Positions 3,352-28,860 of a stretch of DNA of 30,286 nucleotides are shown in pieces. Numbering within the stretch: position 1 is the first letter of the stretch; each line of letters begins with the position of its first letter. Source of the stretch: a virus (taxonomy: Duplodnaviria; Heunggongvirae; Uroviricota; Caudoviricetes); IMG/VR virus record IMGVR_UViG_2778261087_000001, positions 1-30,286 of that record; one strand, 5' to 3'. The notes under the pieces were generated by a model. The model did no database searches. It had not been told where the DNA came from and saw only the letters and a list, made by a program, of their open reading frames with translations. Both the position numbers and the translations under genes were made by a program.

Positions 3352-3649
3352 GTTTAGACCTCGTTATTTTAAAAATCTGCACGACGTTACCGCGCGTTTT
3401 AATAACCGCAGCTAGCATGACAGCGTTGATAATGACCTCAGATAAATCCACAGCCATTGGCGTACGTAACCAGATTGCATAGGCGACACGAACAGGAATA
3501 CTGGCCGCAGCAACAATCAGGAAATAAGCAAGCCATCCTCCCCACCTTCGGTGTTGAGAGCCGTTACGCCGGAATGTGACAACGCGAATTGCTATGCCAG
3601 TGCAAATAACTGCATTGGTGATAAGCAAAAAAAACTCATGCGTTACCAT
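3341..3649 (-). CDS. holin-like / lysis-associated membrane protein
   Basis: 102 aa, about three predicted transmembrane segments, overlaps the endolysin start by 11 nt; GGAG 8 nt upstream of ATG. Confidence 0.5.
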
Positions 3650-4040
3650 CGTCTTTTCTCCCCGGAATTAACTCGCGTGGATTATCGGAACGGTGATAAA
3701 GCCATATACCAATTCGCACAGCGACAATTGACGACACAAATGCGCCAGCAGAGAAGACGATCCCTTTCTCGAAAGAGTCCTGCGTGATGGTAGGGATCAG
3801 GCTGGCTACACCGATAAGGATGGATGCTGTAGGTTTGTAAAAGAGAAGGCCGCAGAGGAAGCTGAGCATAGACAGGAGAACCCGGCGATGAATGGGATAC
3901 TCGATGGCTGAGGTAACAAAAATTACCGCCCCAGCCAAAGCTCCCAAAGCCACCTCTGGAGGAACCCCTGCTATCACCGCAGCAAGAGAACTCGCACTAA
4001 GCCACTGATTTAAAGACTCACTGGTTAGCTGAACTGACAT
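3636..4040 (-). CDS. holin-like membrane protein
   Basis: Multi-pass hydrophobic protein with charged C-terminus; track ORF begins at GTG 4049, but ATG at 4040 has GGTG 6 nt upstream and is preferred. Confidence 0.5.
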   Translation of the reverse strand: MSVQLTSESLNQWLSASSLAAVIAGVPPEVALGALAGAVIFVTSAIEYPIHRRVLLSMLSFLCGLLFYKPTASILIGVASLIPTITQDSFEKGIVFSAGAFVSSIVAVRIGIWLYHRSDNPRELIPGRKDDGNA

Positions 4041-4104
4041 AAAAAACACCGTTTAATGTGCATAAAGAATCCCCTTAGTTGGTTAGTTCATCATACACAA
4101 TAAA

Positions 4105-4160
4105 CCATATGTGGATTAAACTTGATCTGATAATTCTTAACGAAATTACCTTAAAGGTGA
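4105..4160 (+). promoter_or_regulatory. bipartite intergenic motif, copy A (CCATATGTGGAT ... ATTACCTTAAAGGTGA)
   Basis: CCATATGTGG at 4105-4114 and ATTACCTTAAAGGTGA at 4145-4160; same two elements recur at 6084-6150 and 24999-25077. Confidence 0.45.
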
Positions 4161-4261
4161 TATCATAAATATCCTTGTGTCATTTAAAATTAGAGTTAGG
4201 GCATGATAGCCAACATACAATATTTGCGTTTTCTCGCTGCATTCCTTGGTGATGACTTATC

Positions 4262-6031
4262 TTAAACAACAATTTTAAGGAAGTTTGAAGCATCCTTATA
4301 AATGGTGCCCGCGGGGGCGCCGTTTATCTCCTCAAGCGTTTTTACGTTCTTCAAAACCACCTTGCCATCTTCCAGAAATTCAATGCATGGTGCGTCGTTG
4401 TTCATTTTTATTTTCAACGAACCAACAGCACTATCTCCGTTTCCGCTTATCCATTCAAGTGACGCAATAGGAAGTGCATTGCCGTTGTGATCTGTCCCTT
4501 GTAGCAAGATCCTTCCAGTTCCTACCCCTGGTATTCTGATAGCTGCGCGACCCCCATCCTCTAAAACTACTTCCAAAATTTCTTTAGGATATTTTGTGTG
4601 CAGCCCTACACGCGACGTGCTCGACAGCCCACCACCACCAGGGACGACGGCAATACCTGGAATAAGCGATTCTGCAAAAAGCATCACTGAGTCTTTATGT
4701 GGATTGACTGCTGGGTTACCGTCATTAATGCCGCCCCCGATCGCAATCGAACCACCATAAGCCTGAATATTCTTACCTACAGCAAAAGAGCCATCTCCTG
4801 CCGCGCGAGTTTGATATCCAATGGCCGCCGCACCAATGCCATCACTTGCAACCCCGCCGGGGTCTGTAGTGTATCCCGGTCTGGCTTGCGTAAAATAACC
4901 TGTTGTAAAAGCCGCCCTTGAAAGCGCTTCCGTTTCTTCACAGAATGCGGCAGATTTTGCGCCAAGAGCAATGACATTTTTCCCAAATGCAAAAGAGCAG
5001 TACCCCTCAGCATTTGGTGAGGTAATATGATCTGGGTCCCCAGTGGCAGAACCAGCACCACCGGCAATAGATGCCACGCCGTACGTAACGCAGTCATGCC
5101 CGAAAGTTGTGGTGTATACCGCGAATGACGCACCGTTTCTGTTAAAAGATGCTGAGTAATCACCGATAAGAGCCGGGTTACACCATGAATTTCTCGGTGT
5201 AGGCAAGCCTCTCCAGAAGTTCTTTTCATCGTCAAGTGGTAGGAGATCGGCACCACCAATTCTCAGCCAACCTTTATCCTTATCAAAAGAAAAAGTGACG
5301 CCATCGGTTAAAGTAGATCCAACCGGTATACCGTAATTAACTTTTGTGCCAATCCTCTTAAGCCCGTCAGGTTGCGCCAGCAATAACAGAACATCTGCTG
5401 CACTACCGCTCTCAGGCAAGACCATAATGGACTCACCTGCATAATCATATGCATGGATCATATTTGCACGTTCTGCAGCAGGAGGGAGTTGCCGCGTAAA
5501 TGACTCTGGAACCCTTAACGTGTGCAGATAGTTGTTGTTACTAATCGTGTCTACATAATTTTTAGTGGCAGCATCCTGCGGGTCTCGTGGGTCGCGCAGG
5601 TTGCGAATGTAATTCCCCAGCGCGTCGTACCAGTTAGCGATGGTTGATGGCTTGCGCAGCGCCAAGGCAAACCAACTGCGAACCTGCTGGATCAGCATCG
5701 TCAGTTTATCGAATGCGTCTTCATGCACCTCAGCGAAGAACTTACCCTGGTTGCGCAGATCGGTATCCTGCGTAACCGGTAGCTCTCTTGATATAGAAAT
5801 CTGATAACCGTTAGCCAACGCCTTCGACAGAATTACATTGCCGCCGTTATACCCTCCCGCACCAGTGACTATGTAATCAGTATCAAGAATCAGCTCTGTG
5901 ATGTTCTCGTTCAGGTCAACAACCTGCACTACTAAATCAGATTTCTGGAAAATCCTGAAGGTATAAGGGAATGCCGTTGTAACACCGTTACCTGTGTATT
6001 CGTTGTGGTCAACTTCGGTTGAGACCGTCAT
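4262..6031 (-). CDS. tail fiber / tailspike protein with T7 gp17-like N-terminal adaptor domain
   Basis: 589 aa; N-terminus (YTGNGVTTAFPYTF...DLVVQVVDL...ITELILDTDY) resembles the conserved podovirus tail-fiber N-terminal domain; Gly/Ala-rich C-terminal part with lower GC at the 3' end; GGAG RBS. Confidence 0.7.
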   Translation of the reverse strand: MTVSTEVDHNEYTGNGVTTAFPYTFRIFQKSDLVVQVVDLNENITELILDTDYIVTGAGGYNGGNVILSKALANGYQISISRELPVTQDTDLRNQGKFFAEVHEDAFDKLTMLIQQVRSWFALALRKPSTIANWYDALGNYIRNLRDPRDPQDAATKNYVDTISNNNYLHTLRVPESFTRQLPPAAERANMIHAYDYAGESIMVLPESGSAADVLLLLAQPDGLKRIGTKVNYGIPVGSTLTDGVTFSFDKDKGWLRIGGADLLPLDDEKNFWRGLPTPRNSWCNPALIGDYSASFNRNGASFAVYTTTFGHDCVTYGVASIAGGAGSATGDPDHITSPNAEGYCSFAFGKNVIALGAKSAAFCEETEALSRAAFTTGYFTQARPGYTTDPGGVASDGIGAAAIGYQTRAAGDGSFAVGKNIQAYGGSIAIGGGINDGNPAVNPHKDSVMLFAESLIPGIAVVPGGGGLSSTSRVGLHTKYPKEILEVVLEDGGRAAIRIPGVGTGRILLQGTDHNGNALPIASLEWISGNGDSAVGSLKIKMNNDAPCIEFLEDGKVVLKNVKTLEEINGAPAGTIYKDASNFLKIVV

Positions 6032-6083
6032 GTTAAATCTCCAGATAGTCGCAGCACCCGTTGCGCCGCATATCCGGTTATTC

Positions 6084-6150
6084 TATTACCTTAAAAACCA
6101 CATATGGATAGATAACCCATAAATACGAACAGATATTACCTTTCAGGTGA
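6084..6150 (+). promoter_or_regulatory. bipartite intergenic motif, copy B (TATTACC-N7-CCACATATGGAT ... TATTACCTTTCAGGTGA)
   Basis: TATTACC at 6084-6090, CCACATATGG at 6098-6107, TATTACCTTTCAGGTGA at 6134-6150; about 75 bp upstream of the plus-strand ORF at 6227. Confidence 0.5.
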
Positions 6151-6226
6151 TTCGCAAAACGTGCTGGATAGCAAACAAATTATTTGATACTGTATATTTA
6201 TACAGTTATTGCATGGAGAAGATAAG

Positions 6227-6484
6227 ATGCAGCAGTATCACTATCCACTGGAAGACGGATTTACCGAAAGGATTCACACGCCGGGAGGCGTCAGGTCACT
6301 GGTGGAGGGATCGCACTTGATGAAATTACTACGGGATCTCGATAAGGATGGATTTAATGTCGATGGCCCACTTGCCGAACTGACTGCACTGATTAACTAC
6401 GTCACCAGCTCACAGATGTCTATGCAGGATCTGCAAACACATCTCGACTATTGTGCCGAACAATTACGAAAACAAACCAGATAA
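6227..6484 (+). CDS. hypothetical small protein, paralog of the Bro-N protein C-terminal domain
   Basis: Track ORF starts at TTG 6209; ATG 6227 has GGAG 8 nt upstream. Shares the pattern H-x-P-G-GV...L-E-S-LM-LL...DG-V-G-AELT...QTH with residues about 160-228 of the downstream Bro-N protein. Confidence 0.5.
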   Translation: MQQYHYPLEDGFTERIHTPGGVRSLVEGSHLMKLLRDLDKDGFNVDGPLAELTALINYVTSSQMSMQDLQTHLDYCAEQLRKQTR

Positions 6485-6796
6485 GGTTTGCAATTACCAA
6501 CTGGAGTGCTTATATTTACCTTTGCGGTAAATTTACATCGCACTCCTCTTGTGCCATAGTAATCGGGCACTGGCAAAATCCAGTGCCGGGATTGGCGTCC
6601 CGGGTTACTACAGAGGCACATATGCCGCATAAGCGGTTTTTTTATGTGTAAAGCGCACCTATTCTATGGTGGGCTGTGTGGGGGCACCGAAAGGTGCGCC
6701 GGGTCCTTTGTAGCCGGTTACGCCAACCCTGTACAGTTCACCACCAACCGATTGGCGTCGGTAGTGGTGATTAACCTAACTACAAAGGTGATCACT

Positions 6797-7483
6797 ATGA
6801 CTGCTAACGTAACCCCATCTGTTTTTCATTTTGAATCAGAAGCAACCATTCGAGCCATTGTTATTGATGGAAATCCTTGGTTTGTTGCCAAAGACGTTAT
6901 TAAAGCTCTTCAACTGACAAACCCCACTATGTCAATAAAATCTCTTGATGATGATGAAAGGGCTAAATTTAACTTAGGCCGTCAAGGCGAAACCAATATT
7001 ATCAACGAGTCAGGCCTCTACACACTGATCCTCCGCTGCCGCGACGCAGTGACACCAGGCACTATCCCCTACCGCTTTCGTAAATGGGTTACAGGTGAGG
7101 TTCTTCCTCAGATCCGCCGCACCGGAAGTTACATTAAAAACTCGCTCCCGCAGGAAGAACGCATAAAGATGGTTGCCGACCAGGTAGCCAGCGCCACAGC
7201 ATCAGCAGTGATGCAGGCAATGAAGGTAGAGAACAAAACCTACAGCGCCCCACTGAAGCCCGGCTACCGCAGCCTGATTCATTCGCCGTCTGGTGTTCTT
7301 GGACTGACGGAGAACTCACTGCTGATGAATCTGCTGAACCAGTTACAGGACGACGGGCATGACGTATCGGGCGCGGCGGCGGAGCTGACCACCATGTTCT
7401 GCTACATCGTCGGTGTGAGCAAATGCCTGCGTGATATCCAGACGCACGCGGAGTACATCAGCGACAAAGCAGGATTCTTCTGA
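6797..7483 (+). CDS. Bro-N domain protein (antirepressor-like)
   Basis: From ATG 6797 (AAGGTG 6 nt upstream): VFHFE...IRAIVIDGNPWFVAKDVIKAL...SLDDDERAKF is a typical Bro-N signature; the track extension upstream to 6644 has no RBS and is rejected. Confidence 0.7.
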   Translation: MTANVTPSVFHFESEATIRAIVIDGNPWFVAKDVIKALQLTNPTMSIKSLDDDERAKFNLGRQGETNIINESGLYTLILRCRDAVTPGTIPYRFRKWVTGEVLPQIRRTGSYIKNSLPQEERIKMVADQVASATASAVMQAMKVENKTYSAPLKPGYRSLIHSPSGVLGLTENSLLMNLLNQLQDDGHDVSGAAAELTTMFCYIVGVSKCLRDIQTHAEYISDKAGFF

Positions 7484-7547: not shown

Positions 7548-7564
7548 TATTACCTTAAAGGTAA
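7548..7564 (+). promoter_or_regulatory. TATTACCTTAAAGGTAA motif, copy D, abutting the RBS
   Basis: Near-perfect palindrome TTACCTTAAAGGTAA immediately 5' of AAGGAGG (7564-7570) and ATG 7577. Confidence 0.45.
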
Positions 7565-7576
7565 AGGAGGCGCGAT

Positions 7577-7744
7577 ATGACAGCGTTGAAAAATCGTACT
7601 CAGCACAATGAACAAGCCAAGCAATGCTGGGATGTCATTGGAAAAGTTATGCTTGGTCGCGCAAGCAAAGAGCGCGACAAGGATATGGTTTACCAGACAG
7701 GAACATCTTTTAGCGACTTCAAGGCGGCATTTCGCTCCAAATAG
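7577..7744 (+). CDS. hypothetical small basic protein (55 aa)
   Basis: Below the 60-aa track cutoff; ATG with consensus RBS AAGGAGG 6 nt upstream; stop 20 nt before the next gene start, suggesting a two-gene operon. Confidence 0.5.
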   Translation: MTALKNRTQHNEQAKQCWDVIGKVMLGRASKERDKDMVYQTGTSFSDFKAAFRSK

Positions 7745-19874: not shown

Positions 19875-20200
19875 TCACCCCCGTTACCGTAGAGGGTTTC
19901 AGCCGCTGATTTTTCTACATCACCGGAAACAGGAGCGATTGCCATATCAGTGATCTGCAGATCGGCGCTGCGATTAACACCATCGTCAGTTTCTCTGGCA
20001 GACAGGCCTCGAATAACAGCCTTTGCAGTTATCATCACTTCTGTTCCGACGCCCTGAGGTTGCGCCTTCAGCTTATTCAATGTGTCGTTATTCAGCGTGA
20101 TGCACAGCCCCCACGGGTATTCATCGCGAGTTCTGGTTTCTCCGCTCTCATCCTGGTAGCTGTCAGTGCCGGTTTTGAGGTTTACGAGTTCCATATACAC
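19871..20200 (-). CDS. hypothetical head/neck structural protein
   Basis: 109 aa ORF in the structural operon; stem-loop and GCAGGAG RBS upstream. Confidence 0.45.
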   Translation of the reverse strand: MYMELVNLKTGTDSYQDESGETRTRDEYPWGLCITLNNDTLNKLKAQPQGVGTEVMITAKAVIRGLSARETDDGVNRSADLQITDMAIAPVSGDVEKSAAETLYGNGGE

Positions 20201-23075: not shown

Positions 23076-24751
23076 TGTGATTGCCCACCCTGACCACTAA
23101 CTGCATTCGCCATAGCTGACAACACACTCGGATCCGAAGTTTTAGCTTCGCTTAGCGTCTTGGCCCCCTGTGCCGCCGCCATCCCCATCGCCATCATTTG
23201 TTGCTGCTGTTGTTGCTGTGCCCGTTGCTGGCGAGCCTGCTCAACCTGTTCCTGCGGAACAATGACGGTTGGAGACACTCCGGACATATCAGCGAATGCA
23301 TCGATCGCCTGATCAACGTTGAGTTTGTCGAGAGCTTCTGGTTTCGCTTGCGCAAGTTGACCAATGAAGTTGACCGTAGACGCCAGACTGGACAGGCCGA
23401 TAGACTTCTGCGCCTGAGCCATGACGGAAATGTATTCGACCTTCAGGGGCATACCTTCCATCGCGTCAGGCGGTGGCGGCAGCATGTTTTTACGCACCAT
23501 CATCGAGAAAGCGCGGTCAATGAGAGGATTAAGACATTCGTCGTTCAGACGCTCCAGAACCGGCCCCAACATCAGAAGTTTTTCTTCTTTCATTTCGATC
23601 ACTGCTTCAACAGGCATCGAGCGGGTATTGATGTTCTGCAACATCATGAACAGATCGACAAAGTAGGCGCTGTTAATGATTTGACGAGTGTCCTGAATGT
23701 CTGCTACCAGATCTGCTGTACTGGGGTTAACCAGATAAGCAGGCCTGAAGCCATCCTGACCAGTAATCTGATCGATATACGTGATGTCGCCAGGAAGAAG
23801 GGAGGCGCGCTGATTCTTGAGGGAAGTCGGAGCAACCATCGGCGGATTGGTGGCTTTATCAATCAACTGCGACTTGCGCTTCTGGAGAAGTTGCAATGCC
23901 TTAACAGGTCCAAGCGCCAGCATACCCGGGCATGATGATCCATAAACATCTTCGCCATTAACTTCCCAGCGCGGAGCCATAATTGGAAACTCATCAAATC
24001 CGGACTCACGCAACAACTTGTCGTTATCGCCACCAACCTCGTAATAAACCGATTTGAATGGCTTGTTCTTGCTATCCAGCTTCGATGTATCGCGGTCAAT
24101 GTTCGGGTAAACCGAATGCATCACTTCAATCCACTTCTCGTAGGTGCCGCTTTCCCACATGCTTTTTACGGATTCGCTGACGTTATTTAGTCCGAACTCC
24201 TGAACAAGCTGACGAACAGTCATAGAGAACTTGCGAAAACAGGTGTCCACACTGCCACGAGGTGAGTTAGCCAGGTAGTAACTGCCTATCGGGAATGGCA
24301 TTGTGCGAATGATGTCCTCATCATCCTCCAGCACTGCCATTGCACCAGTGCTGTATGTGCCTAGGCTTCCGTATAACTGCGGCAGTGACTGATAGAGATT
24401 CGACTTATTGAACATATCGTTCATGCGGTTCTGCACCGCCTCAAGCCACAACTTAACAGGGCCATAATCCATCATTTCAGGATCTGGCGTAGCCAGGCGA
24501 AACCACGGACGCGCGGGGCTTGTGATGCCTGACATCATGCCGCTGGCGAGAGTGCGCGCCGCTATAGTCCCGGTAGAATCAATAATGCGTGTATTGCGTC
24601 GATCGTTACGGTTGACCTCAGAAGTCAGAAAGCGGGAACCACGCGGGTTGATGTAATCACTCAACTCGCGCCAGTGCGGCTCGAACGACTGACGCTCGCT
24701 TTCAAGTTGTGCGAACTGTTTGTTCAATCGCTCTTTAGTTGTTTCCGCCAT
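23072..24751 (-). CDS. portal (head-to-tail connector) protein
   Basis: 559 aa, Gln-rich flexible C-terminus, first long gene of the head module after terminase. Confidence 0.7.
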   Translation of the reverse strand: MAETTKERLNKQFAQLESERQSFEPHWRELSDYINPRGSRFLTSEVNRNDRRNTRIIDSTGTIAARTLASGMMSGITSPARPWFRLATPDPEMMDYGPVKLWLEAVQNRMNDMFNKSNLYQSLPQLYGSLGTYSTGAMAVLEDDEDIIRTMPFPIGSYYLANSPRGSVDTCFRKFSMTVRQLVQEFGLNNVSESVKSMWESGTYEKWIEVMHSVYPNIDRDTSKLDSKNKPFKSVYYEVGGDNDKLLRESGFDEFPIMAPRWEVNGEDVYGSSCPGMLALGPVKALQLLQKRKSQLIDKATNPPMVAPTSLKNQRASLLPGDITYIDQITGQDGFRPAYLVNPSTADLVADIQDTRQIINSAYFVDLFMMLQNINTRSMPVEAVIEMKEEKLLMLGPVLERLNDECLNPLIDRAFSMMVRKNMLPPPPDAMEGMPLKVEYISVMAQAQKSIGLSSLASTVNFIGQLAQAKPEALDKLNVDQAIDAFADMSGVSPTVIVPQEQVEQARQQRAQQQQQQQMMAMGMAAAQGAKTLSEAKTSDPSVLSAMANAVSGQGGQSQ

Positions 24752-24765
24752 TTCAATGACTCCGG

Positions 24766-24972
24766 TTACTGACCAAGCAGCGTTTTACCGCTGGTATTAG
24801 CGGTTGATGTGTCGCCCTGAGAACCGGTAAGCAGCGTAGAACTACGACCAGCAGCAGCGCGACGGCGACGTGTTTCTTCGTCGCGGGCATCAACAACGGC
24901 GGCATCCTGCTCCTGTGGTGCTGCCTGAACTTCTGGTGTTGCAGGCACTGATGGTGAGCTACCCATGCACAT
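24766..24972 (-). CDS. hypothetical small protein (68 aa)
   Basis: ATG with GGAG 10 nt upstream; Ala/Thr/Arg-rich, low complexity; could be non-coding. Confidence 0.3.
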   Translation of the reverse strand: MCMGSSPSVPATPEVQAAPQEQDAAVVDARDEETRRRRAAAGRSSTLLTGSQGDTSTANTSGKTLLGQ

Positions 24973-24998
24973 ATCAATGACTCCGTACGCAATTAAAT

Positions 24999-25077
24999 TA
25001 TTACCAATTTAACCATATATGATTTATTTATCGTAGATAGTTGACATTTAACGCACGAATTATTACCTTTCAGGTAG
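24999..25077 (+). promoter_or_regulatory. bipartite intergenic motif, copy C, with TTGACA; candidate promoter of the tRNA unit
   Basis: TATTACC (24999-25005), CCATATATGA (25013-25022), TTGACA (25041-25046), TATTACCTTTCAGGTAG (25061-25077). Confidence 0.45.
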
Positions 25078-25399
25078 GTAAAGGGTTCATTACGGTTACT
25101 AACCTGACTGGCTTGTCGTTAAATTGAACAGGTGGAGTGAGCTTTTATTTTGAGCAGTACGGCGTATGGCACATGCGCCGATAGCGGTCTGGATACGTTT
25201 AAGGGGCACCCTCCCTTGCTCGGGCAAACGAACCAGGTAGCCGGAATGTGCAAGTCGAGCGGTTTTATTCCGCGCACGGGGATTCACCATCCCGGCGATT
25301 CGGTGTGACTCCTCGGAAGATACGAGGGTACAACGATGAGAGCATTTATGGAGCCGCGACAAAGTGTGGCGCCTTAACAGGCTAAGTGCTCTCAGCGTT

Positions 25400-25476
25400 G
25401 TGGCATTAGCTCAGTCGGACAGAGCAACCGCCTTCTAAGCGGTTGGTCGCAGGTTCGAATCCTGCATGCCACGCCA
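25400..25476 (+). tRNA. tRNA-Arg (anticodon TCT)
   Basis: 77 nt; 7-bp acceptor stem GTGGCAT/ATGCCAC, D arm GCTC...GAGC, anticodon stem ACCGC/GCGGT with loop CTTCTAA, T arm GCAGG-TTCGAAT-CCTGC, discriminator G, CCA end; acceptor stem differs from host argU as recalled. Confidence 0.85.
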
Positions 25477-25519
25477 GAATCACGCCTAAGGACCGTGATG
25501 CCAGAAGTTCCAGGTGCTT

Positions 25520-27621: not shown

Positions 27622-28214
27622 TGATTGCCATCCTGACGTTCTTTCAGTCTCTTCCTGGCTGCCGCTATGCGATCAGCAATTGTCACATTCACATTAACAT
27701 CCAGGCGTTCTTTGAATGCGTTGACGTCGACGTGCTTACCAATCAGTTCGAGGTTCTTCACCTTGTCAGGCCATTTAATTTTTTTGAGGATTGTCTCTAT
27801 CGAATCCTCGTTCATGTTCATGATGGTCGATGACAGATCAAAGCCACTAAGCGTAGTGCGCCAGATTTTCGGCCACTCGCGGATTGGCTTAAGGCTCCCA
27901 TCGTCGTTGAGGATGTCGATCACGTCCATCTGGTCGATCTCCACCAGACGCATGAGAACGTAATCAGCACTGACGCGCATTCGTTTGTTGCGCTCCTCCA
28001 TCAGCTCGGCAATCCGTTTTTGAATGCGTTCATCGCGCATCATGACACTGGCTTTAACTGCCGCTGTATTTGGGGAGAATCCTGCGTTAATCGCTGCCTG
28101 AGTCTGGTTTTCAGGCGTTTTGATGTATGACTGGCAATAAGCCTCCTGCATTGCTGTTAGTGGCTTAAATTGCGTTGATTTGCGTTTATAGGTTTTAGGT
28201 TCAGCAGGCATCAT
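27618..28214 (-). CDS. terminase small subunit
   Basis: Basic helical protein immediately upstream of the large terminase; track ORF extends to TTG 28292, but ATG 28214 lies after an upstream terminator and direct repeats and is preferred. Confidence 0.6.
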   Translation of the reverse strand: MMPAEPKTYKRKSTQFKPLTAMQEAYCQSYIKTPENQTQAAINAGFSPNTAAVKASVMMRDERIQKRIAELMEERNKRMRVSADYVLMRLVEIDQMDVIDILNDDGSLKPIREWPKIWRTTLSGFDLSSTIMNMNEDSIETILKKIKWPDKVKNLELIGKHVDVNAFKERLDVNVNVTIADRIAAARKRLKERQDGNQ

Positions 28215-28221
28215 AACCACC

Positions 28222-28250
28222 GTGGTAATAGTTACCGTTGTGGTAATAGT
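28222..28250 (-). repeat. two 11-bp direct repeats (ACTATTACCAC on the minus strand) upstream of terS
   Basis: GTGGTAATAGT on the plus strand at 28222-28232 and 28240-28250; contain the same TATTACC core as the plus-strand motifs. Confidence 0.5.
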
Positions 28251-28251
28251 A

Positions 28252-28283
28252 CCATGCAAAATAAAGCCGCCATAGTTGGCGGC
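28252..28283 (-). terminator. rho-independent terminator between the early-type genes and the packaging operon
   Basis: Minus strand GCCGCC-AACTAT-GGCGGC followed by TTTATTTTG. Confidence 0.5.
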
Positions 28284-28288
28284 AGTAT

Positions 28289-28522
28289 TCAAAGTCCATC
28301 AAATTCATCGTAAAAACTCTCGTCAAGATACCCTTCCCATTTACCGCGAATGAAAATTACATCCTCGCCGCAAGGGTGCTGACTGTCGATAACTATATCC
28401 CTCCTGGCGCAACCATACTTATGCATGAGAAATTTAACCTCTTTCGGAAAATTTGCTGAGTTATCTCTCATATCTTCAAGGTCGTAGCGTATTTTTGGCA
28501 TAACACCTTCGTGACATGTCAC
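28289..28522 (-). CDS. hypothetical protein
   Basis: Track ORF with GTG start inside the palindrome; alternative ATG at 28501 (MPKIRYD...) has AAGGTG only about 2 nt upstream; start uncertain. Confidence 0.45.
   Translation of the reverse strand: MTCHEGVMPKIRYDLEDMRDNSANFPKEVKFLMHKYGCARRDIVIDSQHPCGEDVIFIRGKWEGYLDESFYDEFDGL
28511..28522. repeat. 12-bp perfect palindrome GTGACATGTCAC (copy 3 of 3)
   Basis: Exact palindrome overlapping the stop codon of the 113-aa gene and the 5' end of the next gene. Confidence 0.6.
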
Positions 28523-28860
28523 ACTATTAATTTCGTTTCATGCCAGCCTTTAGTCACCCAGCATTGCGAGTCACCATTACACGGGCATGAATTCACAGGA
28601 ACTCTCTCGCCGCACTTACCGCAACGTTTTCTGCTGATCGATTTCATACGCCCGCGCACGCGTGCATCATCCTGGCGGATCAGTAACGCTATATACTCAC
28701 CAAATTCGTAAGGCGCACGCCCGGGGCGACGCGTGGCACAGTTACGCTCCAGCATTTCAATTTCCTGAGCATCAAGCACAATCTCCAGCTTACGTACACC
28801 GGATTCAGCTTGTCTGGCTCTCTGAGCGGCTTTGCGCTCTGCTGCTGATTTAGCCATCAA
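28519..28860 (-). CDS. hypothetical protein with C-terminal zinc-ribbon-like Cys cluster
   Basis: 113 aa; charged helical N-terminal part and CGKCG...CPCNGDSQC cluster. Confidence 0.45.
   Translation of the reverse strand: MMAKSAAERKAAQRARQAESGVRKLEIVLDAQEIEMLERNCATRRPGRAPYEFGEYIALLIRQDDARVRGRMKSISRKRCGKCGERVPVNSCPCNGDSQCWVTKGWHETKLIV

Follow-up and report, generated by a model that had tools for sequence, protein, structure and literature searches.

The bipartite motif found on either side of the tail-fibre gene of this prophage is very probably, in each of its copies, a transcription-control module of an epsilon15/phiV10-like temperate phage, built from an operator for the phage repressor Rep, a spacer, a palindromic box, a -10-like hexamer and a block of late genes. 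The modules are a matter of ordinary gene regulation and not a device for swapping tail fibres. One stands ahead of the tailspike gene, one ahead of the lysis cassette and one ahead of the portal block of the window, by which we mean the whole stretch of 30,286 nucleotides that was analysed. Read on the minus strand, the order is operator, spacer of fixed length (25, 28 or 37 nt) and free sequence, box, -10-like hexamer and gene. What the window and its relatives show directly is the set of elements, with its geometry, enrichment and conservation.

Judged by its sequence, the window is an epsilon15/phiV10-like (Uetakevirus) prophage of Escherichia coli. The family is matched in about 550 of 5426 complete E. 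coli genomes (554 matching records), and prophage A357 (L008) is about 98–99% identical to the window over most of the aligned length. The immunity region lies outside the window, and the Rep gene is not encoded within it; A357 encodes a Rep of 194 aa that matches the Rep of phage SPC32H (5D50_A, E=3.5e-42). The genes and sites concerned are the following.

4262–6031, minus strand: tail-fibre or tailspike gene, 589 aa, matching PHROG tail families.
3636–4040, minus strand: holin-like gene that opens the lysis cassette, matching Pfam Phage_holin_8 and a PHROG holin, homologue of epsilon15 gp23.
6227–6484: Ant homologue (matches SPC32H Ant, 5D50_E, E=4e-47), adjoining the tailspike gene.
6190–6205: LexA box, a perfect match, ahead of the gene of the Ant homologue.
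6135–6151: operator B, ATTACCTTTCAGGTGAT, upstream of the tailspike gene, with 0 mismatches to ATTACC-N5-GGTRAT.
6096–6109, minus strand: box B, ATCCATATGTGGTT, which contains CCACATATGGAT of the motif as first reported.
6080–6090, minus strand: block GGTAATAGAAT, with the -10-like TAGAAT (6085–6080) after the operator half-site GGTAAT.
4145–4161: operator A, ATTACCTTAAAGGTGAT, upstream of the lysis cassette, with 0 mismatches to ATTACC-N5-GGTRAT.
4103–4116, minus strand: box A, ATCCACATATGGTT, which contains CCATATGTGGAT of the motif as first reported.
4090–4095, minus strand: -10-like hexamer TATGAT of the predicted lysis-operon promoter, 7 nt downstream of box A.
25062–25078: operator C, ahead of the gp3/portal block, reading CCTACCTGAAAGGTAAT on the minus strand.
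25011–25024, minus strand: box C, AATCATATATGGTT, followed by GGTAATAAT and the -10-like AATAAT at 25002–24997.
28213–28229 and 28231–28247: two adjacent operators, abutting the start of the terminase small-subunit gene (terS).

The first-pass annotation had described direct copies of the motif bracketing the tail-fibre gene, and direct reading finds both in place. Copy A consists of CCATATGTGGAT (4105–4116) and ATTACCTTAAAGGTGAT (4145–4161) with a gap of 28 nt, and copy B of CCACATATGGAT (6098–6109) and ATTACCTTTCAGGTGAT (6135–6151) with a gap of 25 nt. The TATTACC ascribed to copy B is present at 6084–6090 and belongs to the GGTAATAGAAT block, read on the other strand. The tail-fibre gene does lie between the copies on the minus strand, and the two halves follow each other in the same order in both. 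The word 'direct' holds for that order only, since both halves are near-palindromes, and either CCAyATrTGG core is the exact reverse complement of the other. The motif also occurs away from the tail-fibre gene, with a third copy (25011–25024 and 25062–25078) upstream of the gp3/portal block. Nor is it special to a receptor-binding gene: complete relatives carry three to six modules each, with further ones ahead of the gp40 and ruvC/DUF1064 units. The tail fibre thus looks 'flanked' for no other reason than that its gene has one control module and the operon after it has another.

The second half of the motif, ATTACC-N5-GGTGAT, is a 17-bp palindromic operator of a kind annotated as a repressor site in the GenBank record of epsilon15, and the earlier suggestion of a functional regulatory element is borne out to the extent that the motif looks like one and half of it already carries a repressor-binding annotation in that phage. 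Operator B is homologous to the epsilon15 feature 'protein_bind repressor/lysogeny' at 19895–19911, and operator C is equivalent to the repressor site annotated at 2931–2947; for the terS pair, epsilon15 has a repressor site annotated at 12–27. In all, repressor-binding sites are annotated at eight places in epsilon15, including those upstream of the tailspike, gp3 and terS genes. An equivalent of operator A is present in epsilon15 (24703–24719), SPC32H, phiV10 and Tyrion and absent from TL-2011b; in the lysis unit of TL-2011b and of some IMG/VR relatives the box is kept and the operator is missing. With up to two mismatches allowed, the operator pattern has 19 matches in the window against 3.6 expected, and 40 in epsilon15 against 4.0. 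Motif searches find strong intergenic enrichment in the window and in all related genomes examined. The intergenic operators of the window begin at 4145, 6135, 6515, 7549, 25062, 28213 and 28231, epsilon15 has the same intergenic concentration, and the terS pair shows operators of this family to be spread through the late region. The half-sites ATTACC/GGTAAT are used in all of the roughly 80 distinct sequences per locus recovered by three IMG/VR scans. These operators are predicted Rep sites, on the strength of the AY150271.2 annotation, of their identity of form and, indirectly, of qPCR data from phage ZX5.

The first half of the motif is a 14-bp palindrome with the minus-strand consensus AWCCRYAWAYGGTT, adjoining a -10-like hexamer. 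Across the window, phiV10, epsilon15, SPC32H and Tyrion the core of box B does not vary, in contrast to the diverging sequence of the 25 nt that separate it from the operator; the GGTAATAGAAT block is likewise invariant in five of five aligned genomes, and conservation ends right after it. At the lysis unit, all relatives have GGTTTATTGTGTATGAT with little or no change, and the box consensus is kept across 78 distinct variants of the lysis promoter (the anchor of this comparison excluded positions -10 to -1). Symmetric covariation, the mark of an RNA or DNA hairpin, was not seen in the box among these 78 variants, and a palindromic consensus of this kind fits a protein site and not an RNA hairpin. 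An Rfam scan of the whole window at the gathering threshold returned isrK (6567–6643), C4 (6662–6748) and one tRNA, and gave no covariance-model match over the motif. In this prophage, the C4-antisense-RNA-like and isrK-like RNAs precede a Bro-N antirepressor, an arrangement that resembles immI of phage P1.

The spacing of the two halves is conserved as well. Spacers of 25, 28 and 37 nt are invariant in length in the five to six genomes measured per unit, their sequences diverging. With the 3' end of the -10-like hexamer as reference point, the operator centre stands 63 nt upstream at the tailspike gene (operator B) and 63 nt away at the lysis cassette (operator A); the portal block has 73 nt (63 plus 10) from operator centre to -10. 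At both units, tailspike and lysis, the 63 nt recur in each of the genomes examined, and the operator stands at the same distance in 82 of 82 distinct tailspike-upstream sequences from IMG/VR. The distances between operator and box centres (19.5, 40.5, 42.5, 43.5 and 52.5 bp) all fall within 1.5 bp of whole helical turns. The epsilon15 record annotates a site for IHF in the operator–box spacer region; a search of the spacers for the IHF consensus WATCAANNNNTTR with at most one mismatch found none between operator and box. Could the likeness of the intergenic regions be mere chance in AT-rich DNA? Taken alone and searched loosely (up to two mismatches), the first half is indeed no commoner than in shuffled sequence, with 8 matches against 8.1 expected; what makes it significant is that it is linked to the operator and conserved in relatives. 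Linked operator-then-box modules, however, number three in the window against a mean of 0.005 in 200 Markov shuffles, and both halves, with their spacing, recur in six relatives of known genome sequence and, at each locus, in roughly 80 distinct sequences from IMG/VR. Chance, whose probability we put close to nil, is already refuted by this conservation.

As putative promoters, the modules have good and conserved minus-strand -10-like hexamers (TAGAAT, TATGAT) and weak -35 equivalents, with 3–4 of 6 positions matching. Scans for the sigma-70 consensus over 3900–6400 and 24700–25500 found no minus-strand promoter at the three modules, and no terminator was found between the tailspike and lysis genes in the scan of 3900–6400. 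A constant register between box and -10 was considered and rejected (GGTT-7-TATGAT, GGTT-11-TAGAAT, GGTT-8-AATAAT). So was the assignment of the box to the E. coli factors DnaA, CRP, RutR or sigma-54, as none of their sites fits across the relatives. Full-text literature searches found no description of the box or of late promoters in the Uetakevirus family.

From these elements, a mechanism may be proposed. On the minus, late-gene strand, the 17-bp operator for Rep would stand first, the 14-bp palindromic box would overlap the -35/spacer region of the promoter, and the -10-like hexamer and gene block would come last; such modules would serve the tailspike gene, the lysis cassette just downstream of it and the gp3/portal block. 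In a lysogen, we infer, Rep on its dispersed operators helps to keep the late units silent, and it would be inactivated by the LexA-controlled antirepressor Ant, encoded next door. The box, in turn, may be a protein-binding site that acts together with the operator, either as a second, promoter-overlapping site for tetrameric Rep or as the site of another phage regulator.

The lysis unit offers an experimental parallel. Its first gene is in synteny with epsilon15 and phiV10 and is served by copy A. In phage ZX5, whose repressor is identical to that of phiV10, over-expression of the repressor cut holin transcription by 99.97% (PMC9782041). This result is consistent with direct control of the lysis unit by the repressor but does not prove such control.

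A block exerted by Rep alone is harder to accept, given that the operator is centred near -70 or -80, too far upstream to stop RNA polymerase by itself; repression from the operator would therefore need a second contact, which is hypothetical. One possibility, which we hold only tentatively, is that the box is a distinct, undescribed regulatory site of Uetakevirus type working with the Rep operator, be it a second Rep site or the target of a phage regulator, so that one repressor would directly gate every late unit by way of a composite element of fixed geometry. As a second site of tetrameric Rep anchored at -70/-80, the box would give rise to short, in-phase repression loops. Other candidates for binding it would be the protein in the Cro position and the 112-aa Cys-rich 'transcriptional regulator' encoded directly ahead of the terminase genes, for which no sequence match was found in Pfam, NCBIfam or PDB. 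Relatives with a different operator type, which might part a Rep site from a site for another factor, were sought; all used the same half-sites, and contigs without a nearby operator had operators elsewhere.

A tetrameric Rep also suggests a longer loop, in which one tetramer bridges the two operators flanking the tailspike gene and closes roughly 2 kb of DNA. According to an account of the SPC32H work, the Rep of that phage is tetrameric when it binds DNA, and each of its DNA-binding pairs is put together from different dimers (PMC9638917); with one operator at 4145 and one at 6135, either site would have a pair to spare. The distance between the operators is nevertheless far from constant: it is 1990 bp in the window, but epsilon15 and SPC32H have about 4.8 kb and phiV10 has about 3.8 kb. 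Moreover, some relatives have no lysis operator at all; a loop of this kind is highly improbable.

The copies had also been thought to drive transcription on the plus strand, antisense to the tail-fibre gene. This part of the early description stands in so far as a promoter-like site on that strand does overlap operator A.

4137–4166, plus strand: site resembling an extended -10 promoter, TTAACG-18-(TG)a-TATCAT, which overlaps operator A and points into the 3' end of the tailspike gene.

It is the only sigma-70-like site that the scan found near either copy. The same TGn+TAnnnT arrangement occupies the same operator half in epsilon15, SPC32H, phiV10 and Tyrion. At the gp3 region, a perfect plus-strand TTGACA (25041–25046) is kept in all 79 distinct relatives and lies 17 nt from a TAnnnT inside operator C. 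The -10 elements thus overlap the operator in two of three regions, and the main target of the operator could be a divergent plus-strand promoter. That the modules as such are plus-strand promoters, with an antisense transcript from copy A regulating the tail-fibre gene, is nonetheless unlikely. The plus-strand promoters of relatives face O-antigen conversion genes, or tRNA-Arg and small ORFs, and not the tailspike; no promoter-like site on the plus strand covers the operator of copy B; and the box half plays no part in the plus-strand promoters. The conversion genes are absent at the copy A region of the window, and any plus-strand transcript would therefore run antisense into the 3' end of the tailspike gene. 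Between the plus-strand site and the convergent tailspike stop lies just one ORF of 20 codons (4203–4265), which suggests a relic of a replaced segment of conversion and tailspike genes; motif resemblance is what hints at an acyltransferase relic in this ORF. The site at operator A is probably a relic of the promoter that faces the conversion genes in relatives. As for the origin of 4162–4262, distant blastn searches of phage and E. coli collections matched only 11 genomes with the same arrangement. Because the geometry from operator to -10 is fixed relative to the minus-strand genes, copy A is read chiefly as the control region of the lysis operon and not as an antisense device.

There remains the proposal that the repeats are recombination substrates, or 'boundary sequences', for the exchange of tail-fibre cassettes between phages. 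What varies in these genomes is the stretch from the tailspike N-terminal domain to the lysis control region; the protein itself keeps its N-terminal ~230 aa and is variable in its C-terminal part. The phages, moreover, encode recombinases of the RecT and exonuclease VIII types. Such recombinases are able to use short homologies. Some left-hand ends of homology also fall close to copy A: 7 of 57 sampled ends lie just past operator A (4162–4167) and 19 at or just past box A (4107–4131), while TL-2011b has a junction between box and operator. The right-hand side tells against it. Among 25 E. coli genomes sampled evenly from the 554 matching records, all 22 that break do so inside the N-terminal coding region of the tailspike gene (5539–5941), 150–560 nt from copy B, which always lies within conserved DNA. 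The left-hand ends are spread over about 200 nt (3965 to 4167), and 28 of the 57 are downstream of the whole module. Breakpoints thus do not coincide with both repeats, never falling at copy B and being scattered across the copy A region, and the pair does not bracket an exchangeable cassette as had been proposed. Modules also occur at units that undergo no exchange, and recombination between the two copies in one genome would delete the tailspike gene. Cassette exchange through the repeats is very unlikely. Two more specialised arrangements were considered and rejected: an invertible segment of the Gin/Cin type, the motif order being direct and no recombinase being found among the neighbours (holin-like, tailspike, ant and Bro-N genes), and a diversity-generating retroelement, the longest repeat in 3600–6700 being 26 nt at 73% identity, where a pair of template and variable repeats would span about 100 nt or more. 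No reverse transcriptase gene was found in the ORFs examined or in the annotation of A357.

Reading the modules as late-gene control regions removes a tempting but unsupported story of repeats that drive tail-fibre swapping or antisense control, and offers instead a concrete map of the regulation in a group of prophages that is very common in E. coli and Salmonella. If the mechanism holds, the repressor, unlike that of lambda, would sit directly at each late unit (tailspike, lysis, portal and terminase), much as C1 does in P1, with a bearing on how firmly a lysogen shuts off its lysis and virion genes and on how a LexA–Ant–Rep switch might free all units at once. The combination of fixed-length, free-sequence spacers with near-integral helical spacing predicts that insertions of 5 bp and 10 bp would behave differently.

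Among known systems, Gin of Mu and Cin of P1, and the retroelement of BPP-1, likewise have repeats associated with a receptor-binding gene, and BPP-1 shares some structural genes with the epsilon15-like family. In contrast to the former, the window has no inverted crossover sites and no adjacent invertase; in contrast to the latter, it has no pair of template and variable repeats, no reverse transcriptase and no repeat longer than 26 nt in 3600–6700. Closer at hand is epsilon15, in whose feature table (AY150271.2) the predicted operators have the same 17-bp palindrome, ATTACC-N5-GGTAAT. Those upstream of the tailspike, gp3/portal and terS are positional homologues of operators B and C and of the terS pair, the E. 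coli-type sites differing in being asymmetric (ATCACC...GGTAAT). The lysis-unit operator (4145–4161 in the window, 24703–24719 in epsilon15) is absent from that annotation, which includes neither the box nor any promoter. The predicted epsilon15 operators are reportedly associated with a publication by Kropinski and colleagues in 2007. The lytic switch of SPC32H (Rep, Ant and LexA; PDB 5D50) has its likeness in the window, where an Ant homologue also stands behind a LexA box, and SPC32H likewise has an operator beside ant and the tailspike gene. The study of SPC32H by Kim and Ryu in 2013 is said to deal with the Rep–Ant interaction and the ant promoter, and not with dispersed late-unit operators or the box.

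Cooperative repression provides a further model. Hochschild and Ptashne reportedly found in 1986 that lambda CI binds cooperatively to operators separated by whole helical turns. As with CI, and with looping from the auxiliary operators of lac and gal, the window pairs a strong site with a second one near whole helical turns (19.5, 40.5–43.5 and 52.5 bp) and the repressor is oligomeric; the window differs in that the box core is CC-N6-GG and that of the operator CC-N5-GG, and the binding of Rep to the box is hypothetical. In P1, Lpa-dependent late promoters have a -10 without a -35 and, immediately ahead of that -10, a short palindrome. The window departs from P1 in its unrelated proteins and sequences, in an operator fixed at -70/-80 beside the palindrome and in that no Lpa homologue was identified, and the P1 operators are asymmetric. 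Yet the C1 repressor of P1 acts through 22 dispersed 17-bp operators, late functions included (PMC8546580), and the model put forward for the window has the same plan of one repressor and many scattered operators.

The bipartite motif flanking the tail fibre (tailspike) gene is a real regulatory element, and direct reading of the window confirmed the sequences and positions that the first-pass annotation had given for both halves. Copy A, in the control region of the lysis cassette, comprises CCATATGTGGAT (4105-4116) and, after a 28-nt gap, ATTACCTTAAAGGTGAT (4145-4161); copy B, upstream of the tailspike gene, comprises CCACATATGGAT (6098-6109) and, after a 25-nt gap, ATTACCTTTCAGGTGAT (6135-6151). 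These had been called direct copies, which holds only for the order of the halves, since each half is near-palindromic and the 10-mer cores of the two copies are exact reverse complements. The motif does lie on both flanks but is not unique to them, as a third copy (25011-25024 and 25062-25078) is found upstream of the gp3/portal block. Modules in which a 17-bp operator (the second half) is followed, on the minus strand, by a 14-bp box (the first half) occur three times in the window, compared with an average of 0.005 over 200 shuffles; the operator pattern alone matches 19 times for 3.6 expected, and in epsilon15 40 times for 4 expected.

The region around the motif pair matches temperate podophages of the epsilon15/phiV10 type (genus Uetakevirus). 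A prophage of E. coli A357, integrated beside guaA, is colinear with the window, with 92-99% identity over the aligned blocks and 98.9% over the motif-pair region. Host DNA makes up the left end of the window, a call based on size, synteny and the 98.9% match to E. coli A357; the prophage ends somewhere within 2031-2228, and the opposite end of the same prophage type abuts guaA. The main features are:
within 1-2230, host chromosome (leftmost ~2.1 kb; yfgG/H/I)
958-1476, yfgH
1492-2031, yfgI
starting at 4040, minus strand, lysis cassette
4262-6031, minus strand, tailspike gene
6190-6205, plus strand, perfect LexA box CTGTATATTTATACAG, upstream of the ant homologue
6227-6484, plus strand, ant (antirepressor) homologue, 85 aa, adjoining copy B (SPC32H Ant, PDB 5D50 chain E, E=4e-47)
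6227 to ~8200, plus-strand island, breaking up the minus-strand late genes
minus strand, late genes in the order terminase, portal, capsid, internal proteins, tailspike, lysis cassette

The repeats had been proposed to mediate exchange of a tail fibre cassette, a role as paired boundaries that the positions of the homology breaks contradict. Among 25 E. coli genomes, evenly sampled from 554 matching records, 22 showed a right-hand similarity break, in every case within the N-terminal coding region of the tailspike (window 5539-5941); copy B lay inside conserved DNA in all sampled genomes, and phage records agree. The 57 left-hand homology ends sampled were scattered:
4162-4167, just past operator A, 7 of 57
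4107-4131, on box A or immediately beyond it, 19 of 57
4041-4075, in the 5' UTR or start codon, 28 of 57
3965-3968, within the gene, 3 of 57
The variable segment therefore spans from the tailspike interior to some point in the lysis control region, with operator A and box A frequently marking where the conserved part of the lysis module ends. The defining features of an invertible tail fibre segment, of a diversity-generating retroelement and, over the motif, of a known RNA family (Rfam) were looked for and not found.

By its sequence, the second half of the motif is identifiable as a known repressor operator, already annotated in a relative. The GenBank record of epsilon15 labels the homologous site upstream of the tailspike as 'protein_bind, repressor, lysogeny' on ATTACCTTACAGGTAAT. 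Eight such sites are annotated there: they precede terS, gp3/portal, the tailspike and (one) ruvC, and three separate the repressor gene from the leftward early genes. The repressor Rep of SPC32H has a homologue in the A357 prophage (5D50 chain A, E=3.5e-42), and all relatives found use the same operator type. The LexA box overlaps the likely -10 of the ant-homologue promoter, and a conserved block, CTATCCAGCA (minus strand, 6163-6172), invariant in five phages, lies between this box and operator B. LexA-controlled Ant reportedly inactivates Rep, which the SOS response does not cleave, according to work by Kim and Ryu in 2013.

Operators also occur elsewhere. One, ATTACCTTAAAGGTAAA (7549-7565, plus strand), overlaps the ribosome-binding region of a 55-aa ORF (7577-7744, plus strand, phrog_8607) in a moron-like island; this ORF, not one of the late genes, would be a further unit under Rep control. 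The start codon of the terminase small subunit is abutted by two full operators (within 28213-28290, minus strand) spaced 18 bp apart. Ahead of them, at ~28283-28258, stands a GC-rich hairpin with a T-run, the counterpart of a terminator marked where the epsilon15 record closes. The start of late transcription would thus lie between this terminator and terS, unless transcription reads through the terminator.

Regions upstream of the tailspike, lysis and gp3 genes were aligned for the window, epsilon15, SPC32H, phiV10, TL-2011b and Tyrion. They share, along the late strand, an operator, a freely diverging spacer, ATCCAyATrTGGTT and a conserved -10-like block (GGTAATAGAAT for tailspike, TTGTGTATGAT for lysis and GGTAATAAT for gp3); the TATTACC noted at 6084 in the first-pass annotation is part of the tailspike block. 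Three scans of IMG/VR found the operator at equal distance in 82 of 82 distinct tailspike-upstream sequences, and both operator and box kept in 79 distinct gp3-upstream sequences. Similarly, 78 distinct lysis promoters, anchored solely on GGTTTRTTGTGTATRAT, gave a palindromic consensus, AWCCRYAWAY(GGTT), at the ten positions before the anchor. Because no symmetric covariation was seen in the box across these 78 promoters, a hairpin at the box appears unlikely. The box core is CC-N6-GG, compared with CC-N5-GG in the operator, and the box, which has a separate consensus, is retained in TL-2011b and in some IMG/VR contigs that have lost the operator.

Spacers measure 25, 28 and 37 nt, with lengths invariant in the five or six genomes measured per unit. 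The operator centre stands 63 nt (tailspike, lysis) or 73 nt (gp3) from the 3' end of the -10-like hexamer, which would put the box centre at about -27 to -30 and the operator at about -70 or -80. In complete relatives, additional modules precede gp40 and ruvC/DUF1064, and Tyrion has an extra one in the region of its leftward early promoter; the gaps are 7 or 30 nt. The operator-to-box centre distances (19.5, 40.5, 42.5, 43.5 and 52.5 bp) each lie within 1.5 bp of whole helical turns, a near-integral spacing noticed post hoc and offered as a lead only. Constant geometry, fixed-length but sequence-free spacers and the conservation of both elements argue that the modules serve the minus-strand genes; the tail fibre gene is flanked because the tailspike and the downstream lysis operon each own a family-wide module. 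In the literature searched, the box and the fixed geometry seem undescribed, though both are ordinary in kind.

A 12-codon upstream ORF (ATGCACATTAAACGGTG..., 4025-4063, minus strand), headed by a strong Shine-Dalgarno motif (AAGGGG), runs 16 nt into the first gene of the lysis cassette, across its start codon. Every relative keeps this ORF, as do most of the 78 lysis promoters from IMG/VR, and it may serve translational coupling or control. The tailspike 5' UTR contains a GC-rich hairpin (6041-6062, minus strand) downstream of the -10-like block and ahead of the Shine-Dalgarno sequence, kept with differing sequences (E. coli-type GCGGCGC-AACGG-GTGCTGC; Salmonella/Enterobacter-type GCGC-GCCGG/GATGG-GCGC) and with a possible role in mRNA stability or processing.

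The other role proposed for the motif is antisense transcription. The sole consensus promoter-like match near either copy lies on the plus strand over operator A (TTAACG-18-TATCAT with an upstream TG, 4137-4166). Epsilon15, SPC32H, phiV10 and Tyrion have TGn+TAnnnT on the same half of this operator, directed towards O-antigen conversion genes. The window has no such genes, and before the convergent tailspike stop there is only a 20-codon ORF (4203-4265, plus strand; MIANIQYLRFLAAFLGDDLS) with a Shine-Dalgarno sequence. Outside 11 E. coli genomes that share this arrangement, the ~100-nt segment holding it had no relatives. The ORF contains a motif, LRFLAAFL, similar to the N-terminus of acyltransferase-3 (O-antigen acetylase) proteins, and may be what is left of a conversion gene cut short by replacement of the tailspike segment. 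The site could yield an antisense transcript, but we read it as a relic promoter and not as the purpose of the motif. At the third copy, a perfect TTGACA (25041-25046, plus strand), conserved in 79 of 79 distinct relatives, stands exactly 17 nt from TACCTT within operator C; 25041-25069 (plus strand) is likely a Rep-repressed divergent promoter directed towards tRNA-Arg(TCT) (25400-25476, plus strand) and small ORFs.

In the lysogen, Rep on its dispersed operators would help to silence each late unit, and upon LexA cleavage Ant would strip Rep from all operators simultaneously. In phage ZX5, whose repressor is identical to that of phiV10, repressor over-expression lowered holin mRNA by 99.97% (PMC9782041), which fits direct control of the lysis unit but does not prove it. 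Since an operator at -70 alone cannot occlude RNA polymerase, the box is probably its promoter-proximal partner. A second, weaker Rep site at the box is plausible, given that terS and the rep-cro intergenic control region each have two full operators 17-18 bp apart, and that the DNA-bound form of SPC32H Rep is a tetramer that has two DNA-binding pairs (PMC9638917). Equally possible is the site of a separate regulator, in view of the CC-N6-GG core, the box's own consensus and its persistence without the operator. The second-to-last early-right gene before terS encodes a 112-aa protein (28519-28857, minus strand; phrog_536, 'transcriptional regulator') whose N-terminal half is basic and whose C-terminal part bears a Cys cluster (CGKCG...CPCNGDSQC); the protein had no Pfam, NCBIfam or PDB sequence match and is a candidate late regulator or box-binding protein.

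Within the plus-strand island, Rfam detected an isrK-like Hfq-binding sRNA (6567-6643, plus strand, 74.7 bits) and a C4 antisense RNA (6662-6748, plus strand, 78.5 bits), directly upstream of a Bro-N antirepressor-like gene (plus strand, ending at 7483); over ~80 aa at the C-terminus, its product matches the small Ant family (phrog_450). An operator-like sequence, TTTACCTTTGCGGTAAA (6515-6531), lies just upstream of both RNAs. This set resembles P1 immI (c4-icd-ant) and Gifsy-1 isrK and adjoins the small ant under LexA control, so that the phage appears to have two antirepressor modules. The operator-box modules themselves belong to the system of the operators annotated in epsilon15 and the Rep/Ant/LexA switch of SPC32H. 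Late promoters of phage P1 have a palindrome just upstream of the -10. The closest analogue in logic is the P1 C1 repressor system, in which C1 acts at 22 dispersed 17-bp operators and late promoters need the activator Lpa (PMC8546580).
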